This document shows positions 9,757 to 38,041 of a DNA stretch of 64,000 bases, in pieces. The position numbers and the translations under genes were made by a program. Source of the DNA: Nanobdellota archaeon (GTDB lineage: Archaea > Nanobdellota > Nanobdellia > Pacearchaeales > GW2011-AR1); contig JBBSXC010000001.1 in assembly GCA_038045945.1 (NCBI GenBank), forward strand, positions 52,592 to 116,591, given 5' to 3'. The number at the start of each line of letters is the position of its first letter. The stretch's first letter is position 1. The notes beneath the pieces are model-generated. The model had not been told where the DNA came from, searched no databases, and was given only the letters and a program-made list of their open reading frames with translations.

Positions 9757-10827
9757 ATGATGTTAGCTGGTACATTCTCAAATACTGATATAAGAAAAGC
9801 CATAAGTAGCGGGGAGATTATTTCTAGAGCTGAAATAAGTGATGTTCAAGTTCAGCCTTCTTCTCTTGATTTAACTATTGGTAGAAAAATTTGGTGTTTA
9901 CCTTACTCTTCAATACCTCAGGGGAGAATAGAGGATTACTTGGATGGGAAGAAGTCTGATGTTGAAGATAAAGACGAGACTTATTTGCATAAGAGAGTTT
10001 TATACGTTGCTGAAATAAATGAGGAGTTAAGATTACCTGGCGATGTTGAAGGAAAATCTGAGCCTAAGAGTTCAACTGGTAGGATTGATGTTCATGTAAG
10101 GCTTCTTACGCAGGGCGGACAAGCTTATGATCAGGTGAGACCTGGTTATAATGGAAAATTGTTTTTAGAAATTTTTTCTAAAACTTTTGATTTAAAAATA
10201 AAGTCTGGCACTTCTCTTAACCAGTTAAGATTATCTGATAATGGTTGCGAATTTTTGAGTAAGTCTAGGCTTGAGGAGTTATGCACTGATCAGAGAGTTA
10301 TTTTTACCGGCGATGGTAAGGCTATTAGCCCTGATGAATTTTTGGAGGATGATTCTATATCTATGACTCTTGATCTTAGTGGTGATAATCCTGGCTATAT
10401 TGGTAGGGATGATGCTCCCCCTCTTGATCTTTCTCGCTTCGATCATGGTTTACTTAAATATTTTGATGTTCCTAAAGTTTTTGATGAGGGTCTTGTTACT
10501 AGGCCTGGTGCTTTTTATTTGCTTAGGTCTAGGGAGAGGGTTAGGATTCCTCGCAGGTATGGTGGTGAAATGGTTAGTATGGAAACAAATCTTGGTGAGT
10601 TTAGGGCTCATTATGCTGGTTTTTTTGATCCTGGCTTTAATGCTCGTGCGGTTTTAGAGGTTAGGAATATTGGTGGTTCTCCTTTCTTGTTAAGGCATGG
10701 TCAAAGGATTGCTAACCTCAAACTTTTAAGGTTGAAGACTAAGCCTTCAATAATTTATGGTAGGGGCATTGGTAGTAATTATCAGGGTCAGCAATTAAAC
10801 CCCGGTAAATATTTTAAAGCAATTTAG
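9757..10827 (+). CDS. dCTP deaminase family protein, long (two-domain) form
   Basis: N-terminal DIRKAI..VQPSSLDLTIG resembles Dcd (..VDVRLG); 356 aa fits long DCD family. Confidence 0.6.
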   Translation: MMLAGTFSNTDIRKAISSGEIISRAEISDVQVQPSSLDLTIGRKIWCLPYSSIPQGRIEDYLDGKKSDVEDKDETYLHKRVLYVAEINEELRLPGDVEGKSEPKSSTGRIDVHVRLLTQGGQAYDQVRPGYNGKLFLEIFSKTFDLKIKSGTSLNQLRLSDNGCEFLSKSRLEELCTDQRVIFTGDGKAISPDEFLEDDSISMTLDLSGDNPGYIGRDDAPPLDLSRFDHGLLKYFDVPKVFDEGLVTRPGAFYLLRSRERVRIPRRYGGEMVSMETNLGEFRAHYAGFFDPGFNARAVLEVRNIGGSPFLLRHGQRIANLKLLRLKTKPSIIYGRGIGSNYQGQQLNPGKYFKAI

Positions 10828-10872: not shown

Positions 10873-11142
10873 ATGTCAAAAAAAGAAATCTCTACTGGTG
10901 TAGTTCATGGTGTGCCTGATGATTTGCGTAAGACTCTTGCTTCTTCTTCGCATGCTCTAAAATCTTGGGAGAGTCTTACTCCTCTTGCTCGTAATGAGTG
11001 GATTTGTTGGGTTGAGTCTGTTAAAAAGGTTGAGACTAGGAATGATCATCTTAGAAGGCTTCTTCAGGATCTTATTAATGGTAAGCGTCGTCCTTGTTGT
11101 TGGGCTGGTTGTATTCATCGATTTAAAAATAAGAGAAATTAG
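10873..11142 (+). CDS. YdeI/OmpD-associated family protein
   Basis: LARNEWICWVESVKKVETR motif typical of YdeI-like domain. Confidence 0.5.
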   Translation: MSKKEISTGVVHGVPDDLRKTLASSSHALKSWESLTPLARNEWICWVESVKKVETRNDHLRRLLQDLINGKRRPCCWAGCIHRFKNKRN

Positions 11143-11155
11143 CCATATTTACAAA

Positions 11156-11167
11156 ACGCCCCCACCG
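11156..11167. repeat. 12-13 nt fragment identical to tRNA-Glu 3' end (acgcccccaccg)
   Basis: exact match to reverse complement of the 3' acceptor/T-stem of both tRNA-Glu genes; isolated GC-rich island in AT-rich spacer. Confidence 0.4.
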
Positions 11168-11205
11168 CCGAAGGAGTCATCAATGCATCAAGCAGGGATA
11201 TAAAA

Positions 11206-11424
11206 TTAAGTTTTCTTCTTATCAGAAATTTTTCTTATCCATTGTACATCAATTAATATTATTAAAAATGCTATGCCTATCTTTAACCACCATACTCCCT
11301 TAAAACCTTCCAGTAAATCTTGTATCCCTAGGGCTCCTAAACCGCCAGCAGCCATTATTAAGAACTCATCAAAAAGTGTCTGATCCATTTTACTATAAAC
11401 TACAATCTCTCTCTTTTTTACCAT
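11206..11424 (-). CDS. small membrane protein
   Basis: 72 aa, two hydrophobic segments. Confidence 0.35.
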   Translation of the reverse strand: MVKKREIVVYSKMDQTLFDEFLIMAAGGLGALGIQDLLEGFKGVWWLKIGIAFLIILIDVQWIRKISDKKKT

Positions 11425-11529
11425 ACCTAATGATTAATATCTTAGTTTATAATAATTATCGAGATAGAATATATCAGAGAAAGCTAAATAAACTAATTAA
11501 AACTGATAATCTAATAAAAAGGTGATAAA

Positions 11530-12279
11530 ATGAGTATCCCAAAATTTAAAGATAAACATCTCTACGACTCTATGGTTAATCCCGCTAATGCTATGAGCAT
11601 TATTAACAAAAAATTCAAGAATCTTCCCAAAAAGTATCTCTTTGTTTATGAAAAGTTCGCACTTCGATATTTTTTAAGAAAGTATAAGCCTAAGAAATTG
11701 GTTCTTTCAGGGAGAATGACTATTTATCTGCATAAAGATATCGGTTTTGTTAGAATGGAAGGTATCGGTGCTCCTTACACTGTGGGTTTCATGGAAAACC
11801 TAATTGGTCTTGGAGGGAAGGTCTTCCTCAATATTGGCTTTGCTGGAGGACTTCATAAAGAGGGAATTATCCTTTGTAAAAAATCTTTAAGGGATGAAGG
11901 AACTAGCCATCACTATATCCCTCATGGAGATTATGCTCATCCAGATGAAGAATTAACAAAAAAGCTTGCTAATTTTCTTGATAAGAACAAGGTAGAATAT
12001 TCTGCTGGAGACTCCTGGACTACAGACTCTTACTTTAGAGAAACTAAAGAAGAAGTTGCAAAGTATTCTAAAGAAGGAATAATAGCTGTAGAAATGGAAA
12101 GCTCTGCCTTGTTTACGGTTGGTAAATTCAGAAACGTAAAAGTAGCATCAGCTTTTGTTGTTAGCGATATCTTAAGAGACAAGTGGGAACAAAAAGCTGA
12201 ACACTATAATGTTAAGGGCGGTCTAAAGAAATTAGTTGATCTGGGAATAAAGTTTTTAGGAAATAACGGAGTTAAATGA
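11530..12279 (+). CDS. nucleoside phosphorylase family 1 (PNP/UDP/MTAP-like)
   Basis: GIIAVEMESSALF motif characteristic of PNP_UDP_1 family; 249 aa. Confidence 0.75.
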   Translation: MSIPKFKDKHLYDSMVNPANAMSIINKKFKNLPKKYLFVYEKFALRYFLRKYKPKKLVLSGRMTIYLHKDIGFVRMEGIGAPYTVGFMENLIGLGGKVFLNIGFAGGLHKEGIILCKKSLRDEGTSHHYIPHGDYAHPDEELTKKLANFLDKNKVEYSAGDSWTTDSYFRETKEEVAKYSKEGIIAVEMESSALFTVGKFRNVKVASAFVVSDILRDKWEQKAEHYNVKGGLKKLVDLGIKFLGNNGVK

Positions 12280-12282
12280 ATA

Positions 12283-12540
12283 ATGGCTAGAGACAGAGGA
12301 ATAGAACACGCAGACAGGCAATTTGATCTGATCAAACTGATAAATGATAAGCTCAAACATAAGAGGAAGATAAGAATTCTCGATGCTGGTTGCGGTCATG
12401 GAGTAGCTATGATAGAAATAGCAAAAAAGTTTGGAGATAAAGTTGAGATTCATGGATTTTTAGACAATCCTGCTGTTGGAAATCCAAAAATAATTCGTGA
12501 AGAGTTTCTTCAGTTACTCTGGTTATGTCATCAATTTTGT
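12283..12540 (+). pseudogene. truncated class I SAM methyltransferase (N-terminal fragment only)
   Basis: IRILDAGCGHGVAMIEIAKKFGDKVEIHGFLD motif I/post-I, then frame decays into low-complexity and overlaps an opposite-strand ORF. Confidence 0.45.
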
Positions 12541-12778
12541 AAACTTCTGTTATTTTTCTCATTATCCAAGCAATCCTTGAACGAATATTGTTTAACCTTA
12601 CAAATCCTCTTGGTCCTTTCTGAGAATTCGATGCCACATTAAGACCCATCTCCATATCAGAAACATAACGCAACAATATATCAGAGTTCTGAGTGCTTAA
12701 ACCAGGAATGCCTTCTCTGGTCTTTTTCTTCCAATTCTCATACTGTTCCTTATGTTTGTAGGGGTCTATTTTTACCAT
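12407..12778 (-). CDS. hypothetical protein; possibly N-terminal fragment of a recombinase/integrase-like protein
   Basis: 123 aa; helical N-terminal domain; assignment weak. Confidence 0.25.
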   Translation of the reverse strand: MVKIDPYKHKEQYENWKKKTREGIPGLSTQNSDILLRYVSDMEMGLNVASNSQKGPRGFVRLNNIRSRIAWIMRKITEVYKIDDITRVTEETLHELFLDFQQQDCLKIHESQLYLQTFLLFLS

Positions 12779-12921
12779 TTTTTGTTTTTTATACGCTCCG
12801 CTAAGTTTTAACCTAAAAGAGCGTTGAAGTCACATGGACTATTAAGTTTAAAAGTCTTGTCGCAAAACAATATATCCGTTCAGAAGCATGGAGTCACGCA
12901 AGAATAAAAGTTTAAAGCCCT

Positions 12922-13716
12922 CTACTTTTCTTGGTTTGATGTGAGGACTTTGCCTAAAGATTTCTTAACTATGTAATCTGAACCTAAACTGCCGGCTAAA
13001 AATGCTATTATAGCCCATATCAGATTATCTTTAAACGCCTCTAAAGAAACTTGGTATCGGTCATAAAGAAAGTAAACTAAAGCTCCGCATATAATTATTC
13101 TTAGAATCCATTTCCAGATATTTCTCCAGTTTATATTTGGTAAATGAAATCTTATTGTTATATCCTTTTGTAAAAATGGCTTTAATTTCGGATATTTTTC
13201 TGATAGGCTATCAAAAAACCTATAAAACATCAGAGAAACTATTCTACTAAAGAACGCAATTGATAGCCCTATAAACATAAAAGAAACTAACATCACTATC
13301 AAAGCCCATCCGATATTTCCTTTTTTTATAAGCATTAAAGTTAGGTTAAAAGCTAACAATGAGAATACGCTATAAAAAAATGTATTCTCTATAGTGTAAA
13401 GCCGATAGTTATAAGCGATTTCTATTGGTAAAATCTTTAGAAACTCTTGATAGTCTTTTTCCCTAAGTTTTTTTAATTCTTTGTTAAGGTGTTTTTTACC
13501 TTCTTCGGTTATAAAAAACATTAGACCCCAATCCTCTTGAGATTCAGCTATATACTTGTCTTTTTGTAGTAAATCTTGAATACTTAATGTAACATGTTTA
13601 TTAATCTCTGGATATCTTGTTGTCTTACCCCAAATTTCAGACCAATTTGTTCCGCCTCTCTTAGAATAATAGTTTACTAAAAGAAGTACCAATAGCTTAA
13701 CTTTTTCTTTATCCAT
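12922..13716 (-). CDS. integral membrane protein
   Basis: multiple hydrophobic helices in C-terminal half. Confidence 0.5.
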   Translation of the reverse strand: MDKEKVKLLVLLLVNYYSKRGGTNWSEIWGKTTRYPEINKHVTLSIQDLLQKDKYIAESQEDWGLMFFITEEGKKHLNKELKKLREKDYQEFLKILPIEIAYNYRLYTIENTFFYSVFSLLAFNLTLMLIKKGNIGWALIVMLVSFMFIGLSIAFFSRIVSLMFYRFFDSLSEKYPKLKPFLQKDITIRFHLPNINWRNIWKWILRIIICGALVYFLYDRYQVSLEAFKDNLIWAIIAFLAGSLGSDYIVKKSLGKVLTSNQEK

Positions 13717-13740
13717 GTTCTTTAGTTTTATAAGGAAAAT

Positions 13741-14391
13741 TTATTTTTTCTCTTTTGTTATTGAATCGCTTATTATTTTTATTATTCCTAAAATCGCTGG
13801 TGAGATAAGAGCTACTGCGGTTATATGTGTTTGGAAAAAAATCAATGTTAAGGCGATTATAACAATCCAAACTATACTGCCTATCAAATAGTATCTTGCA
13901 CTACTTGATAACCTGTAGAATAAATCCTTTTTATCTATAGCCAGAGTTATTGCAGTGTTAATTATATTGGATGTGATAAAAATAGCCATAATACTTAGTA
14001 TAAATCCTGCGATAAATATTTGTAGTGGTGTGATTGTTCCTACTAGGAGCTTGGGTAGAATTGCTGGAACTTTATCTAATACTATGAACCATAATATTGT
14101 TATCAAGACGTAAATTACTCCTATTGGACTAGCTTTCCAGTGTTTTATTCTTTCTTTCATAAACTTTTTATGTCTAGAAGGATAATAAATTTCAAAAGAA
14201 ATTTTATCTTCTATTATGTCTTTATCTTCTTTAAGTTCTTCAATTATCTCATCTATTTCTCCTTCAGAATATTTTTTGCTAAAGCTTTCTTTTATCTTTT
14301 TGTCTGTTAAATTTATCAAATCTTTTGATTTTGTTACTTTTTCTATATAGCTAAAAACTTCTTTCTTCTTTTCCTGTTTTATTTTAGTCAT
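13741..14391 (-). CDS. integral membrane protein
   Basis: N-terminal charged region then 4 TM helices. Confidence 0.5.
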   Translation of the reverse strand: MTKIKQEKKKEVFSYIEKVTKSKDLINLTDKKIKESFSKKYSEGEIDEIIEELKEDKDIIEDKISFEIYYPSRHKKFMKERIKHWKASPIGVIYVLITILWFIVLDKVPAILPKLLVGTITPLQIFIAGFILSIMAIFITSNIINTAITLAIDKKDLFYRLSSSARYYLIGSIVWIVIIALTLIFFQTHITAVALISPAILGIIKIISDSITKEKK

Positions 14392-14392
14392 T

Positions 14393-14656
14393 TTAGCTTA
14401 AATCTGAAAGCTGTTTTTTAAAATAATAAACTAGGGCAGCTAATAATCCCCCTGAAAATATAATCCATCTAAAAAGTTCGTTAGCTCCTACAAATTGTGT
14501 AATTATTACTGAAACAACATAAAGCCCTAGTAAAAATAAGACCGGTAAAATTATGAATCTAAAAACTGCATTATTGTATGCATCCTCAATATCGAATCTA
14601 GCCATAAAAACATATAATCCTCTTGATTTTAAACCTTTTTGTATCATCTTATACAC
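14393..14656 (-). CDS. small membrane protein
   Basis: 87 aa, 2 TM helices. Confidence 0.4.
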   Translation of the reverse strand: MYKMIQKGLKSRGLYVFMARFDIEDAYNNAVFRFIILPVLFLLGLYVVSVIITQFVGANELFRWIIFSGGLLAALVYYFKKQLSDLS

Positions 14657-14693
14657 TTAGTTTAAATGAGATAAATAGCTCAAATTAAAATTC

Positions 14694-14735
14694 ATATCCC
14701 TGAAAGATGCACTGATAGATTCACGCCACAACCGG
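14694..14735. repeat. att-like partial copy of tRNA-Glu(CTC) 3' end plus downstream flank (direct repeat, copy A)
   Basis: about 42 nt, 36 identical, versus 16814..16855, which spans the 3' end of the intact tRNA-Glu gene. Confidence 0.6.
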
Positions 14736-14775
14736 CAAGTTGCCTATTTTGTGATTTTAAGGGGCGTACTTTTTA

Positions 14776-15531
14776 TCATTTTTTAGCCAAACCCCATAGT
14801 AGTCTAGCATATGTTTTAAAAGAATCTGCAACATCTTGGTTTTGTATAACTACGGAAAATGACTTCCCCTTATTAATACCGATAGTAATAGTGTCAGCAT
14901 ATATCTCCATCCACGCATGAGTGATTAACTCTTTTGGCATATAACGAACCTCACTTAATGGATAAGAAGCAGATTCTTTACCAAAAGGATACCGAGCATA
15001 ATCATTATACAGATAATAACATTTAATTCCCTTTTTGTATCGGCGTTTGTGATAGTCTGAAAAGTATGGAGTTAGCTTATCATAAGGAGTTCTTGCAATT
15101 CCTATAATCCACATTTCATCACCTTTTTTCATAATATTTAGGGTTCTTTCTCTAGCCGTTTGAATGCCCTTTAGTCCATCATAAACTTGGGCTGTCTCAG
15201 AAGTAAGAGCTGTTTTGTGCTTAGATTCTAACTGAGGAATAATCTCTTGAAGTTCATGTTCTTGTTGTTTAAGTCTGTCTTGCTTTTCTTTATTGTATAC
15301 TAAGAGTCTTTCGGGGTTAGTGGCTTTGAAACGTTTAATATCGTCCTTGATAATATGAGAAACAAGACCTTTCTTAGCTAAACGACTTAAAATTTGGTAC
15401 ACTTTAGAGAGAGAAACTCCAGATTCTTCAACAATCGGTCCAGAGGTGACTTCTCCTAGGCCTATAAGAGCAAGGTAAACTTTTATTTCTCCCGAAGTAA
15501 GACCTAATTCACGTAATGGTTCGATATTCAT
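14776..15531 (-). CDS. TrmB-family wHTH transcriptional regulator
   Basis: N-terminal LTSGEIKVYLALIGLGEVTSGPIVEESGVSLSKVYQILSRLAKKGLV. Confidence 0.55.
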   Translation of the reverse strand: MNIEPLRELGLTSGEIKVYLALIGLGEVTSGPIVEESGVSLSKVYQILSRLAKKGLVSHIIKDDIKRFKATNPERLLVYNKEKQDRLKQQEHELQEIIPQLESKHKTALTSETAQVYDGLKGIQTARERTLNIMKKGDEMWIIGIARTPYDKLTPYFSDYHKRRYKKGIKCYYLYNDYARYPFGKESASYPLSEVRYMPKELITHAWMEIYADTITIGINKGKSFSVVIQNQDVADSFKTYARLLWGLAKK

Positions 15532-15597
15532 TATACCCCACTAAGGGGGAAATAGTATTTATATATTTAGTATCTCCTTATAGTAGTAAATAATAAC

Positions 15598-16800
15598 ATG
15601 AAACAGCAAATCATAAAACTCCTAGACCCAAGGGAAGTGCAAGAGGAGTTCAATTTAAGGGCGAGAAAGAGAAAAGGTATAGCCAAGGTGCTCTCAAATC
15701 GTTTCTCAAATTACATTAATGAAAAGTTTGACAGTGATGTGAAAACTCTCCTCAATAAGCACTTCAAAGAATCCCATTTTAAGAATGTTCTAGAAGTAGG
15801 AGTCGGGATAGGAAGAATAGCCCCATTCTTTATAGAAAGATCAGAAACGTTCTACGGAGTGGATTTTTCTGAAGGTATGCTTAATGAAGCTTCAAAAAAC
15901 CTTTCTCCTCATAAAAATATAGAATTAATCTATGGAGATGCTTCAGAGTTAGAATTCAAAAAGGGATTTTTTGACCTTGGAATACTCAGCCTTATACTTA
16001 AGCATAACAATGATAAGCAGACAAGAAAGATTATCAAAAATATGAAAAAATGGTGTAAAAAAATACTTCTTATAGAACATGTAATCGGAGGGGCTCTTGG
16101 AAGTAAAATAGCAGTTATAAGAACTTTTGATTGGTATAAAAGAGAGTTCTTACCAAAAAGAATAACAATTCATGAATCATTTCACAGAGATAAAGATTGC
16201 ATTGTCTTCTGTTTTTTTGAATCATCTTTACAAACTTTTTTACTTATAAGACACGGAGTTGTAGAAGTCCCTCATGAAAATTTCATTTATGGTCAAAGAC
16301 ATAACCCTCCTCTATCTATGAAAGGCAAAAGAGAAATGAGGGAGTTAGCTAGAAAGAAAAGTCTTTTTTTTAATTCTATAGATCAAGTTTATTCTAGTGC
16401 TCTTCATAGGTCACTTGAGACTGCACATCTACTCTTTAGAAATAAGCCTATTATTCAAGATGAAAGACTTAAAGAAATAGATTTTGGTGCTTATAGTGGC
16501 GTAGATATAAGGGATCATCCTAAAGTCTTTTCTTCTAAGTACAAATCTCTACTAAAACATAATCAACCTTTCACTGATGGAGAGAGTATTCTTAGTGTAA
16601 AAAAGAGATTAAACCTGTTTAATAAAGAGATTCTTAAGAGTGGAAAATCTTCTTTTTGCATTGTTTCTCATCAATGGCTTCTAAACTGCTACATGAAGCT
16701 ACTCTTGCATACTAACGAGGAATTTATCTTTGAACAAGGAAAGATAACACAGATTATCTTAGAAGATGGAGAAGTAATTTCCTATAAACACAATGTCTAA
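15598..16800 (+). CDS. fusion protein: class I SAM methyltransferase + histidine phosphatase (phosphoglycerate mutase family)
   Basis: LEVGVGIGRIAP (motif I), VDFSE, FDLGILSLIL; C-terminal LLIRHGVVEVPHEN...ALHRSLETAHLL (RHG motif of branch-1 histidine phosphatases). Confidence 0.7.
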   Translation: MKQQIIKLLDPREVQEEFNLRARKRKGIAKVLSNRFSNYINEKFDSDVKTLLNKHFKESHFKNVLEVGVGIGRIAPFFIERSETFYGVDFSEGMLNEASKNLSPHKNIELIYGDASELEFKKGFFDLGILSLILKHNNDKQTRKIIKNMKKWCKKILLIEHVIGGALGSKIAVIRTFDWYKREFLPKRITIHESFHRDKDCIVFCFFESSLQTFLLIRHGVVEVPHENFIYGQRHNPPLSMKGKREMRELARKKSLFFNSIDQVYSSALHRSLETAHLLFRNKPIIQDERLKEIDFGAYSGVDIRDHPKVFSSKYKSLLKHNQPFTDGESILSVKKRLNLFNKEILKSGKSSFCIVSHQWLLNCYMKLLLHTNEEFIFEQGKITQIILEDGEVISYKHNV

Positions 16801-16813
16801 TGCAGGATAAAAA

Positions 16814-16855
16814 TATCCCCGAAAGATGCACTGATAGGTTCACGCCCCCACCGGG
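16814..16855. repeat. direct repeat copy B (overlaps the 3' end of tRNA-Glu(CTC) and 29 nt of downstream flank)
   Basis: pairs with 14694..14735. Confidence 0.6.
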
Positions 16856-16915
16856 ATTCGAACCCGGGTTACAAGCTTGAGAAGCTTGTGTCCTTGGCCT
16901 CTAGACGATAAGGGC
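16843..16915 (-). tRNA. tRNA-Glu (anticodon CTC)
   Basis: manual fold: acceptor GCCCTTA/TGGGGGC, D-loop AGAGGCCA, anticodon stem CAAGC/GCTTG with loop TTCTCAA, T-arm CCGGG-TTCGAAT-CCCGG. Confidence 0.85.
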
Positions 16916-16925
16916 GTTACTGTGA

Positions 16926-16958: not shown

Positions 16959-17825
16959 ATGATGACTGATGAGGTAATAATTGTTAATAAGGAAGATTTT
17001 GATAAGAAGGTTTTATCAATGAGTAGGGCCGGCTCTGGTAGTTTGCAGATTATTAGTGATTTTGATAAGACTCTTACTAAGAGTGTTAATATTAAGGGAG
17101 ACAAAGTTCCATCAATTATTTCTTGGCTTCGTAGGGGTAAGTACCTGAATGATAATTATTCTGATAAAGCTGAAGCTTTATTTTCTAAGTATCATCCTTA
17201 TGAGTTATCAACTGATATTTCAGATAAGGAAAAGTCTTCTATGATGCATGAGTGGTGGGAGACTCATTTTAGGCTTTTGGCTGATTGTGGTCTTGACACT
17301 TTTACTATAAGGAAGGCAACTCAGGAGATGGTTGATAAGGGAGAATTACTTTTAAGGGATGGAGCAGAAGAATTTTTTGTTCGTTTATGGAAAGCTAAAG
17401 TTCCTTTAGTTATTATTTCTGCCAGTATTGGTGATATTATTAAGGAATATTTAAAGATTAAAAGTTTTCATTTTGATAATGTTCACATAATTGCTAATAT
17501 GTTAAAGTATGATAATAATGGAAAATTCTTGGGCGTTATTGAGCCTATTATCCATAGTATGAATAAGAAGGAGATTGAGATTAAGAATCATTCAGAATAC
17601 AAAAATTTGTCAGGTAAGAATAATATTATTCTTTTGGGTGATGGTTTAGGTGACTTGGGCATGAGCGAAGGTTTACATTACGACAACATTATTAGGGTTG
17701 CTTTTTATAATGATGGTGAATCTGACTCTTTAGATTTGTACAAGAAGTCTTTTGATGTTATTATTAAGGGTGAAGCAAGTTTAGAATATGTTAATGATTT
17801 GATAGAAAAGATAGAGAATAATTAA
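16959..17825 (+). CDS. HAD-superfamily pyrimidine 5'-nucleotidase (cytosolic 5'-nucleotidase III / UMPH-1 family)
   Basis: LQIISDFDKTLT (DxDxT motif I), VIISASIGDII, NIILLGDGLGDLGM; collinear with eukaryotic NT5C3. Confidence 0.8.
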   Translation: MMTDEVIIVNKEDFDKKVLSMSRAGSGSLQIISDFDKTLTKSVNIKGDKVPSIISWLRRGKYLNDNYSDKAEALFSKYHPYELSTDISDKEKSSMMHEWWETHFRLLADCGLDTFTIRKATQEMVDKGELLLRDGAEEFFVRLWKAKVPLVIISASIGDIIKEYLKIKSFHFDNVHIIANMLKYDNNGKFLGVIEPIIHSMNKKEIEIKNHSEYKNLSGKNNIILLGDGLGDLGMSEGLHYDNIIRVAFYNDGESDSLDLYKKSFDVIIKGEASLEYVNDLIEKIENN

Positions 17826-17898
17826 TAGCCCCACCAGGACTCGAACCTGGATTTGCGGCTCCAGAGGCCACTGTACTTACCAATTATACTATAGGGCT
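17826..17898 (-). tRNA. tRNA-Gln (anticodon CTG)
   Basis: acceptor AGCCCTA/TGGGGCT, D-stem GTAT/GTAC, anticodon stem GTGGC/GCCGC with loop CTCTGGA, T-arm CCAGG-TTCGAGT-CCTGG. Confidence 0.8.
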
Positions 17899-17998
17899 AT
17901 TGAGATATTGATTCTTTTAGCGCTTTTAAAATTATCTGCTAGGAAAATATATTTAAAGTGGTAAATTCATTGTTTTCTTATAAAGAGATGAATAATTA

Positions 17999-36506: not shown

Positions 36507-36579
36507 ACGCCCCCACCGGGATTCGAACCCGGGTTACCAGCTCGAAAGGCTAGTGTCCTTGGCCTCTAGACGATAAGGG
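36507..36579 (-). tRNA. tRNA-Glu (anticodon TTC)
   Basis: near-identical scaffold to tRNA-Glu(CTC); anticodon stem CTAGC/GCTGG with loop CTTTCGA. Confidence 0.8.
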
Positions 36580-37903: not shown

Positions 37904-38041
37904 TGAGCCTATGCGGATTTGAACCGCAGACCTCCGGCTTTCTTAGCACGTATATGCCACTAAAGCATTAGTTCGCTCAAGTTGCTTGAGAGAACAACGT
38001 CTTATAAGACCGGCGTTCTAACCGGGCTGAACTATAGGCTC
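37904..38041 (-). tRNA. tRNA-Ile (anticodon TAT = UAU) containing a ~63-nt intron at the canonical 37/38 position
   Basis: acceptor GAGCCTA/TAGGCTC (perfect), D-arm GTTC-AGCCCGGTTA-GAAC, anticodon stem CCGGT...GCCGG with loop CTTATAA interrupted after position 37, T-arm TGCGG-TTCAAAT-CCGCA. Confidence 0.7.

Follow-up and report, generated by a model that had tools for sequence, protein, structure and literature searches.

The 64,000-nucleotide stretch of contig JBBSXC010000001.1 from a Nanobdellota archaeon, a member of the DPANN archaea (referred to as the window; GC content about 34%), contains at 11156-16854 what is quite probably a decayed tandem array of integrative elements, produced by tyrosine integrase-mediated insertion at the 3' end of a tRNA-Glu(CTC) gene. 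Partial copies of this tRNA end recur in the window more often than chance predicts, an integrase gene truncated to its N-terminal part lies between them, and intact relatives of that integrase are found beside tRNA genes, in several cases in tandem. The best reading is that two or more integrase-less cassettes have accreted at tRNA-Glu. The features of the locus are collected in Table 1.

Attachment-like sites at the tRNA-Glu(CTC) gene

The tRNA-Glu(CTC) gene is encoded on the minus strand. Position 16842 is therefore its 3' end, and the island occupies the downstream side, toward lower coordinates, with an intact tRNA gene at one boundary as in tRNA-integrated islands. The top family returned by the repeat finder paired 14694-14735 with 16813-16854 as a 42-nt direct repeat (38/42 positions, 90% identity), which is composed of the final 13 nt of tRNA-Glu(CTC) and 29 nt beyond the tRNA 3' end. 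The 12-mer ACGCCCCCACCG was found without mismatch (12/12) at 11156, in tRNA-Glu(CTC) and also in tRNA-Glu(TTC) at 36507, and at up to two mismatches it gave four matches in the window against 0.27 expected. Distal direct repeats of the tRNA 3' part beyond chance are thus present at both 14694 and 11156, and none of the partial copies scored as tRNA, even at E<=1.

The 23-nt downstream part of the repeat, ATCAGTGCATCTTTCRGGGATAT, here called the arm motif, was found at three mismatches or fewer only at 14694 and 16813, with 0 copies expected from shuffles. An inverted copy, ATCAATGCATCAAGCAGGGATAT, was detected at 11179-11201 (19/23 positions), with 11 nt between it and the 11156 core on its left, and at up to five mismatches on both strands (128 kb scanned) the two direct copies and this inverted copy were the only ones obtained. 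The motif was not found after the other six tRNA genes of the window.

A preliminary description of this locus, made from the sequence alone, had claimed an intact tRNA-Glu(CTC) at 16843..16915, which Rfam places identically and ARAGORN at 16842-16916, and an exact fragment of the tRNA end at 11156..11167. Both claims are upheld. The repeat is not a common spacer or terminator motif, which would have spoken against that description, as the two direct copies and the inverted copy in the window are all at proposed boundaries. The 42-nt imperfect direct repeat that it reported is real as well, with an identity of 38/42 instead of the 36 stated.

Three att-like (attachment) sites were delineated (Table 1). 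In the orientation of the tRNA, site 1 consists of the core, 7 nt and the arm; site 2 consists of a second arm, a degenerate core, 7 nt and the arm; and site 3 consists of an inverted arm, 11 nt and the core, with the stop codon of the flanking OmdA-family gene 13 nt outside it. The degenerate core of site 2 (CCGGTTGTGGCG, 14723-14735) has two mismatches to the tRNA-Glu(CTC) end, and its arms are the 23-nt motif at 14694-14716 and the second arm at 14736-14763, the latter being conserved in contig L115. In the best inverted arm pair of the locus, site 3 is matched with either of sites 1 and 2. As judged from the sequence, this layout is the one expected of an attL site, a junction of two related elements (an attP equivalent) and an attR site, respectively, and the 23-nt arms are putative binding sites for the recombinase or an accessory protein.

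When metagenome contigs were scanned with the arm motif, 25 matches were obtained, a similar number being expected by chance for 19 specified bases by our estimate. No tRNA-like sequence was present near 23 of the 25, which look like chance matches, and the informative ones are those in L113 and L115. L115 is a 1.1-kb contig from a different Hainich well of the aquifer that yielded the window, and contains the arm, an exact 11-12-nt core and the second arm. In a blastn comparison it matched the window at 14680-14763 with 84% identity over 89 nt, that is, a module of about 100 nt spanning site 2, and the genes on either side of the module differ from those of the window. In L113, from another organism, the arm is found 7 nt past an intact intron-bearing tRNA with the acceptor end CCCGGTTGGGGCG, apparently a tRNA-Asp from the reading of its anticodon loop.

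Because the L115 module sits between different genes and the L113 arm follows the tRNA of another organism, the 29 nt beyond the tRNA are most likely an element-borne arm common to related elements and not chromosomal flank. The preliminary description had taken them as downstream flank of the tRNA, a view that is less favoured here, also in light of the inverted copy at 11179-11201. The core of site 2 has one mismatch to the Asp-type end of L113, fewer than to the Glu end, and this degenerate core would fit one carried in by an element. Scans of viral contigs gave no match for the arm motif or the tRNA.

The integrase remnant and its intact relatives

The 123-aa product of the open reading frame (ORF) at 12407..12778 is recorded as a protein from Hainich groundwater assemblies, on contigs measuring 445 and 506 kb, and Pfam gave no call for it as an integrase. 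Its direct homologues were few and consisted of short fragments, among them P0002 at 46% identity (E 5e-25), which is the first part of a 385-codon frame with one in-frame stop in contig L001. This frame begins 84 nt downstream of an intron-bearing tRNA-Glu. The halves of the L001 integrase were recognised in neither Pfam nor PDB sequence searches, and the family identity came from the homologue set: with the full-length L001 sequence as query, 2250 proteins were obtained, the best 120 of the 2250 were about 385 aa long, many members carry PF00589, and several are named in their sources as site-specific integrases of Nanoarchaeota or Pacearchaeota. The in-frame stop of L001 (241-1398) is at codon 168 of the full-length frame and could represent a pseudogene, a sequencing error or read-through.

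In a tblastn comparison of five full-length members with the window, a match was found from 12778 down to about 12470, corresponding to residues 1 to about 100, with 42-50% identity and E values of 1e-24 to 7e-30. The matched region covers the N-terminal domain with its motif block (MKIDPYKHKE...DMExGLN...RLN). Nothing matching the catalytic domain was found anywhere in the window, and the invariant residues of the family, which include R188, R286-H287, W309 and Y317/Y318, are all beyond the truncation point, so the catalytic signature R...R-H...W...Y is absent from the 123-aa ORF. As no intact integrase is present in the island, the locus is filed as a remnant and not as a functional element.

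The truncated end of the remnant abuts a methyltransferase fragment on the opposite strand, the two genes being convergent and their ORFs overlapping. This arrangement of abutting stubs suggests that a single deletion between two convergent genes probably took the 3' parts of both, which would be the simplest explanation of the two stubs. With the integrase stub placed centrally in the outer segment and away from any recognisable att copy, there were likely more than two events or an internal rearrangement, and the outer segment itself may be composite or rearranged. A candidate fourth att copy upstream of the stub (12872-12899) was rejected, its local-alignment score of 13-14 falling short of a background of about 24 in the window. 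A pattern-limited scan of IMG/VR gave no viral contig with the integrase family.

The contexts of intact integrases were inspected for three full-length members plus a fourth (loci L084-L092 and L118-L120). The integrated relatives have full-length, unsplit integrase genes of about 383-394 aa beside a tRNA gene, and the distance from the tRNA 3' end to the integrase start is 76-88 nt in L084, L086 and L001. The island starts directly after tRNA-Asp in L084, L086 and L087, and an integrase fragment follows tRNA-Gly in L002. The intact islands have the integrase gene at their edge, are >10 kb long and encode type IV secretion system (T4SS) pilin/TrbC, a TraC/VirB4-like ATPase, PrgI-like and NikA-like proteins and an N6/N4 methylase, together with the defence genes SduA, OLD-TOPRIM with UvrD, and type I restriction-modification. 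By their gene content, these tRNA-integrated islands of Pacearchaeota and Nanoarchaeota look like integrative conjugative elements, and no description of such conjugative-like DPANN islands was found in the literature searched.

Tandem insertion was observed in several of these loci. L086 and L084 belong to the same population, and L086 has an extra 8.3-kb integrase-bearing element between tRNA-Asp and the older integrase; the two loci are a natural before/after pair for a fresh tandem insertion, which has the layout seen in the window and produces the same kind of partial tRNA duplication. In L086 the intact tRNA core CCCCGGTTGGGGCGTTC is at 1578 and a second 17-nt core is at 9898, before the older integrase, and the ends of the new element form a 25-nt inverted repeat (20/25 positions) abutting the cores, which is the unique best match in the locus. 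L090 has the core CGGTGCGGGCG in front of each of two integrases, which are separated by 10 kb. Five core-like units with 82-94 nt spacing were found between tRNA-Asp and the integrase in L087 (9545-10000; also in L088), with the core CGGTnnGGGCG preceded by GGTGCCA and followed by TGGCACC as inverted arms. These units were found by pattern, being too diverged for Tandem Repeats Finder, and may represent either 'empty' att scars or binding sites of the arm type. Taken together, the contexts indicate that the targets of this integrase family are tRNA 3' ends, that its core is short and flanked by inverted arms, and that its elements build up tandem arrays.

A different arrangement was seen in L118, where a tRNA-3'-end-like sequence, CCCGGTCGGGGCA, is present at 9895-9915, upstream of the integrase and on the opposite strand, with no adjacent tRNA. 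Such an arrangement suggests that the element may have this integrase at its distal (attR) end.

Gene content, composition and flanks

Table 1. Features of the tRNA-Glu(CTC) locus and its flanks, in window coordinates
Feature	Position	Strand	Basis or remarks
dCTP deaminase, before the OmdA gene	9757-10827	+	Pfam annotations of L003
Left chromosomal flank, OmdA-family gene	10873..11142	+	Pfam annotations of L003, same contig
Site 3, outer attR-like boundary	11156..11201	-	exact 12-nt tRNA 3' core 11156-11167, 11-nt spacer, inverted arm 11179-11201 (19/23)
Outer segment, 'E_B', 3.5 kb	11168..14693		ORF calls, Pfam, hydropathy
72-aa membrane protein	11206-11424	-	outer segment
PNP_UDP_1 nucleoside phosphorylase	11530-12279	+	Pfam
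Class I S-adenosylmethionine (SAM) methyltransferase, N-terminal fragment	12283..12470	+	partial Pfam match; GxGxG motif only
Integrase remnant, 123-aa ORF	12407..12778	-	homology to ~385-aa DPANN tyrosine integrases
Membrane protein	12922-13716	-	outer segment
Membrane protein	13741-14391	-	outer segment
Membrane protein	14393-14656	-	outer segment
Site 2, putative internal attP-like junction	14694..14763	-	repeat, blastn vs L115, alignment
Inner segment, 'E_A', 2.1 kb	14736..16812		TrmB regulator and divergent methyltransferase-phosphatase fusion; no integrase
TrmB-family regulator	14776-15531	-	Pfam
Methyltransferase + His_Phos_1 fusion	15598-16800	+	Pfam
Site 1, attL-like	16813..16854	-	13-nt tRNA core 16842-16854, 7-nt spacer, 23-nt arm ATCAGTGCATCTTTCGGGGATAT 16813-16835
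Intact tRNA-Glu(CTC), integration target	16842..16916	-	ARAGORN; Rfam RF00005 (16843-16915, 58 bits)
Right chromosomal flank, UMPH-1 5'-nucleotidase	16959..17825	+	Pfam
tRNA-Gln(CTG), after UMPH-1	17825-17899		

The gene content given in the preliminary description was confirmed. The TrmB-like regulator and the methyltransferase-histidine phosphatase fusion in 14736..16813 were both recognised by Pfam, as was the nucleoside phosphorylase between the outer copies, and the three membrane proteins reported there have 2-5 hydrophobic 19-mers each (Kyte-Doolittle). The truncated methyltransferase converging on and overlapping the 123-aa ORF is supported by the ORF overlap and by a partial Pfam match, in which positions 2-34 of a 145-position profile are matched by residues 27-59 of the ORF starting at 12283. 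For the 123-aa ORF itself, the proposed integrase N-domain stands by homology (E to 7e-30), although Pfam did not recognise it.

The methyltransferase-phosphatase fusion is rare, with six matches at E<=1e-30 among 1.84 billion cluster representatives. The same domain order was found in one of the six (P0247, 59% identity, 398 aa), and three appear reversed in order, the methyltransferase part of the query aligning to their C-terminal half. No T4SS, relaxase or other transfer domain was found among the island genes with Pfam and PHROGs, and no viral hallmark with PHROGs. The tetranucleotide distance of the island is the highest among all same-size windows (0.196 vs 0.140 +/- 0.021, z ~2.6), a modest deviation overall, and its GC content is ordinary (32% vs 34%). 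A match to the SNORD27 model of C/D-box snoRNAs was noted at 13519-13582 on the minus strand, within the gene of a 264-aa membrane protein (34 bits vs a gathering score of 52, E 0.004), and is probably due to chance.

On the right flank, UMPH-1, a eukaryote-type pyrimidine 5'-nucleotidase, lies between tRNA-Glu(CTC) and tRNA-Gln(CTG). The closest relatives by UMPH-1 are L004 (70% identity) and L005 (57%), in which the order tRNA-Glu(CTC), UMPH-1, tRNA-Gln is kept. The sequence past tRNA-Glu is unrelated to the window in both, with just 40 and 66 nt left between the tRNA and the contig end; contig breaks so close downstream of tRNA-Glu in both relatives may reflect strain-variable DNA. L006-L009 (50% identity) have no synteny with the window. 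A single-protein scan of genome contigs with UMPH-1 gave no match, and an alignment-based scan of GTDB representatives gave 74 loci at <=44% identity, none with tRNA-Glu/UMPH-1 synteny or an integrase.

The dCTP deaminase on the left flank is a long form of 356 aa with DCD_N, DCD and DCD_C Pfam matches, and together with the nearby UMPH-1 and the phosphorylase it forms a local nucleotide-salvage gene cluster. Elsewhere in the window, a 138-nt tRNA at 37904-38041 on the minus strand (Rfam, 54.9 bits) was missed by ARAGORN in bacterial mode; it presumably contains an intron, as expected in an archaeon.

Proposed history and comparison with known systems

The order and number of integration events are deduced from the arrangement of the three sites. 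Each element would have carried an attP in which imperfect inverted arms enclosed the final ~12-13 nt of the tRNA. When this attP recombined with the tRNA gene, an intact tRNA would be regenerated beside one arm, as at site 1, and a partial tRNA end would come to lie beyond the opposite end of the element. Site 3 may have been created in this way by a first element, on the chromosomal side abutting the OmdA gene, and a later related element that entered at the regenerated tRNA would have left the internal arm-core-arm junction of site 2. During decay, both before and after this second entry, the integrase would have been reduced to an N-terminal stub of ~100 residues, deletion-fused to the methyltransferase stub, and no transfer genes would have been left. 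The outcome is two att-bracketed cassettes without a working integrase, one of 2.1 kb with the TrmB regulator and the methyltransferase-phosphatase fusion and one of 3.5 kb with the nucleoside phosphorylase and membrane proteins. Integration into a tRNA 3' end followed by decay, with the integrase degraded, was also the central claim of the preliminary description, and it is supported by the repeats, the integrase stub and the comparison of L086 with L084.

Several observations weigh against this history. No empty or differently occupied site was found, because no close relative's contig extends far enough (40 and 66 nt past the tRNA in L004 and L005). Among the matches of the metagenome scan, the arm motif was never seen together with an integrase. 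The distal arm of the inner segment matches the arm motif only weakly and in inverted orientation, and the integrase stub adjoins no significant att copy and is in the middle of the outer segment, unlike the genes of intact relatives, which are about 80-90 nt from a core. The cargo has no homologues in that of the other elements retrieved, and the phosphorylase could be native, since the flanking host genes are likewise concerned with nucleotide metabolism. The tetranucleotide deviation comes mainly from the block of membrane genes and could reflect gene type.

In an alternative history, one element of ~5.7 kb (11168-16812) integrated once, and the 14694 copy is a later product of internal duplication, gene conversion or att recombination. 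Such a history would account for the single integrase remnant in the island, for the best inverted arm pair being that of site 3 with site 1 or 2, and for an inner segment without a convincing inverted arm of its own. It is nevertheless considered unlikely, since site 2 has the full arm-core-arm structure expected of a junction of two related elements or of an attP, its module is found independently, with other neighbours, in L115, and tandem arrays are directly seen in the relatives L086, L090 and L087. It is highly improbable that no mobile DNA was involved at all, in which case the 23-nt motif would be a conserved signal of the tRNA trailer, for processing or for termination, the partial copies would be remnants of old tRNA duplications or chance GC islands, and the genes would be native. 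The motif does follow intact tRNAs in two organisms (site 1 and L113), a terminator-like hairpin on the minus strand (11159-11174) overlaps the 11156 core, and the GC content of the island is unremarkable, yet the other six tRNAs of the window have no such motif and an integrase remnant is present inside the bracketed stretch. Moreover, sites 2, 3 and L115 keep 11-13 nt of tRNA with no tRNA score, which is the signature of att duplication and not of pseudogene decay, and terminator-like sites numbered 1 against 2.9 expected in shuffles. To our knowledge, archaea do not rely on terminator-like hairpins.

Split integrases are known from archaeal fuselloviruses, and the survival of the integrase N terminus as an ORF with a clean start codon might recall the SSV type, in which attP is inside the integrase gene and integration splits it, so that the 123-aa ORF would be Int(N). 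This explanation can hardly be credited, as the C-terminal half is absent from the whole 64 kb and no Int(N) and Int(C) flank the island, the truncated end abuts the methyltransferase stub and not a tRNA core, the upstream att candidate is not significant, and the integrated relatives carry unsplit full-length integrases beside the tRNA. A further possibility, put forward tentatively and regarded as rather unlikely, is that the 2-3.5-kb segments belong to a class of integrase-less att-bracketed DPANN cassettes that are captured, stacked and exchanged in trans at tRNA 3' ends by the ~385-aa integrases. It is hinted at because the L115 module is found between different genes, the L113 arm follows another tRNA, and L087 has five ~90-nt units.

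A decayed tandem array at tRNA-Glu(CTC) remains the preferred reading, and it is a new example of a known genome scar in a little-studied lineage, the phenomenon itself being textbook knowledge. In this groundwater Nanoarchaeota genome it identifies tRNA-Glu(CTC) as a hot spot of integration and flags ~5.7 kb, including the TrmB regulator, the methyltransferase-phosphatase fusion and the phosphorylase, as probably horizontally acquired, which matters when the core metabolism of reduced genomes is inferred. It also provides a concrete att architecture, with a 12-17-nt tRNA core and inverted arms of ~23-25 nt, for a very large DPANN integrase family that has barely been described and that, where intact, is accompanied by conjugation-like and defence genes.

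The principle of tRNA-gene islands made by tyrosine integrases (Islander-type) reportedly goes back to work of Reiter in 1989 and Williams in 2002. In archaea, partial tRNA copies have been interpreted as attR sites, a general origin of partial tRNA genes with which the history proposed here agrees, and PYG1 of Pyrococcus yayanosii is a tRNA-gene island with a tRNA-derived core of 44 bp (PMC9897764). The present locus shares with such islands an intact tRNA at one end, its 3' part repeated directly at the opposite end, and a tyrosine-integrase sequence with accessory-looking cargo inside. It differs in that the integrase is cut to its first ~100 residues, the segments are only 2.1 and 3.5 kb, the repeat runs 29 nt past the tRNA, and the core is 12-13 nt against the 44 bp of PYG1.

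A three-step route from integration through decay to an integrase-less att-flanked element and then accretion has been described (PMC5704250), where cis-mobilizable elements (CIMEs) and tandem accretion are reported for Streptococcus elements of the ICESt1/ICESt3 type (citing Pavlovic 2004 and Bellanger 2011). This route fits the three sites of the window. The cassettes at tRNA-Glu(CTC) would resemble this bacterial state and are probably fixed. In structure the locus appears to be a CIME, as both attL and attR are retained (cores with arms at sites 1, 2 and 3), functional integration and transfer genes are lacking (integrase stub only), and the segments are stacked in tandem at the 3' end of the target gene. 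Unlike the Streptococcus cases, the host is a DPANN archaeon and no resident intact element is present in the window.

The intact DPANN islands (L084-L092, L118-L120) are alike in the integrase N-domain, in insertion at tRNA 3' ends, in the short core with inverted arms and in their tandem arrays, whereas they exceed 10 kb and carry T4SS, ATPase, methylase and defence genes, all absent from the island of the window, and their arm sequences differ from those of the window. If cassettes were indeed exchanged in trans, the tRNA end would act much like the attachment site of an integron. Integron cassette arrays are comparable in architecture only, with small promoter-poor cassettes bounded by recombination sites beside a fixed attachment point; integrons use attC hairpins, an adjacent IntI, a dedicated attI and a Pc promoter, whereas the tRNA 3' end and tRNA-derived cores take these places in the window.

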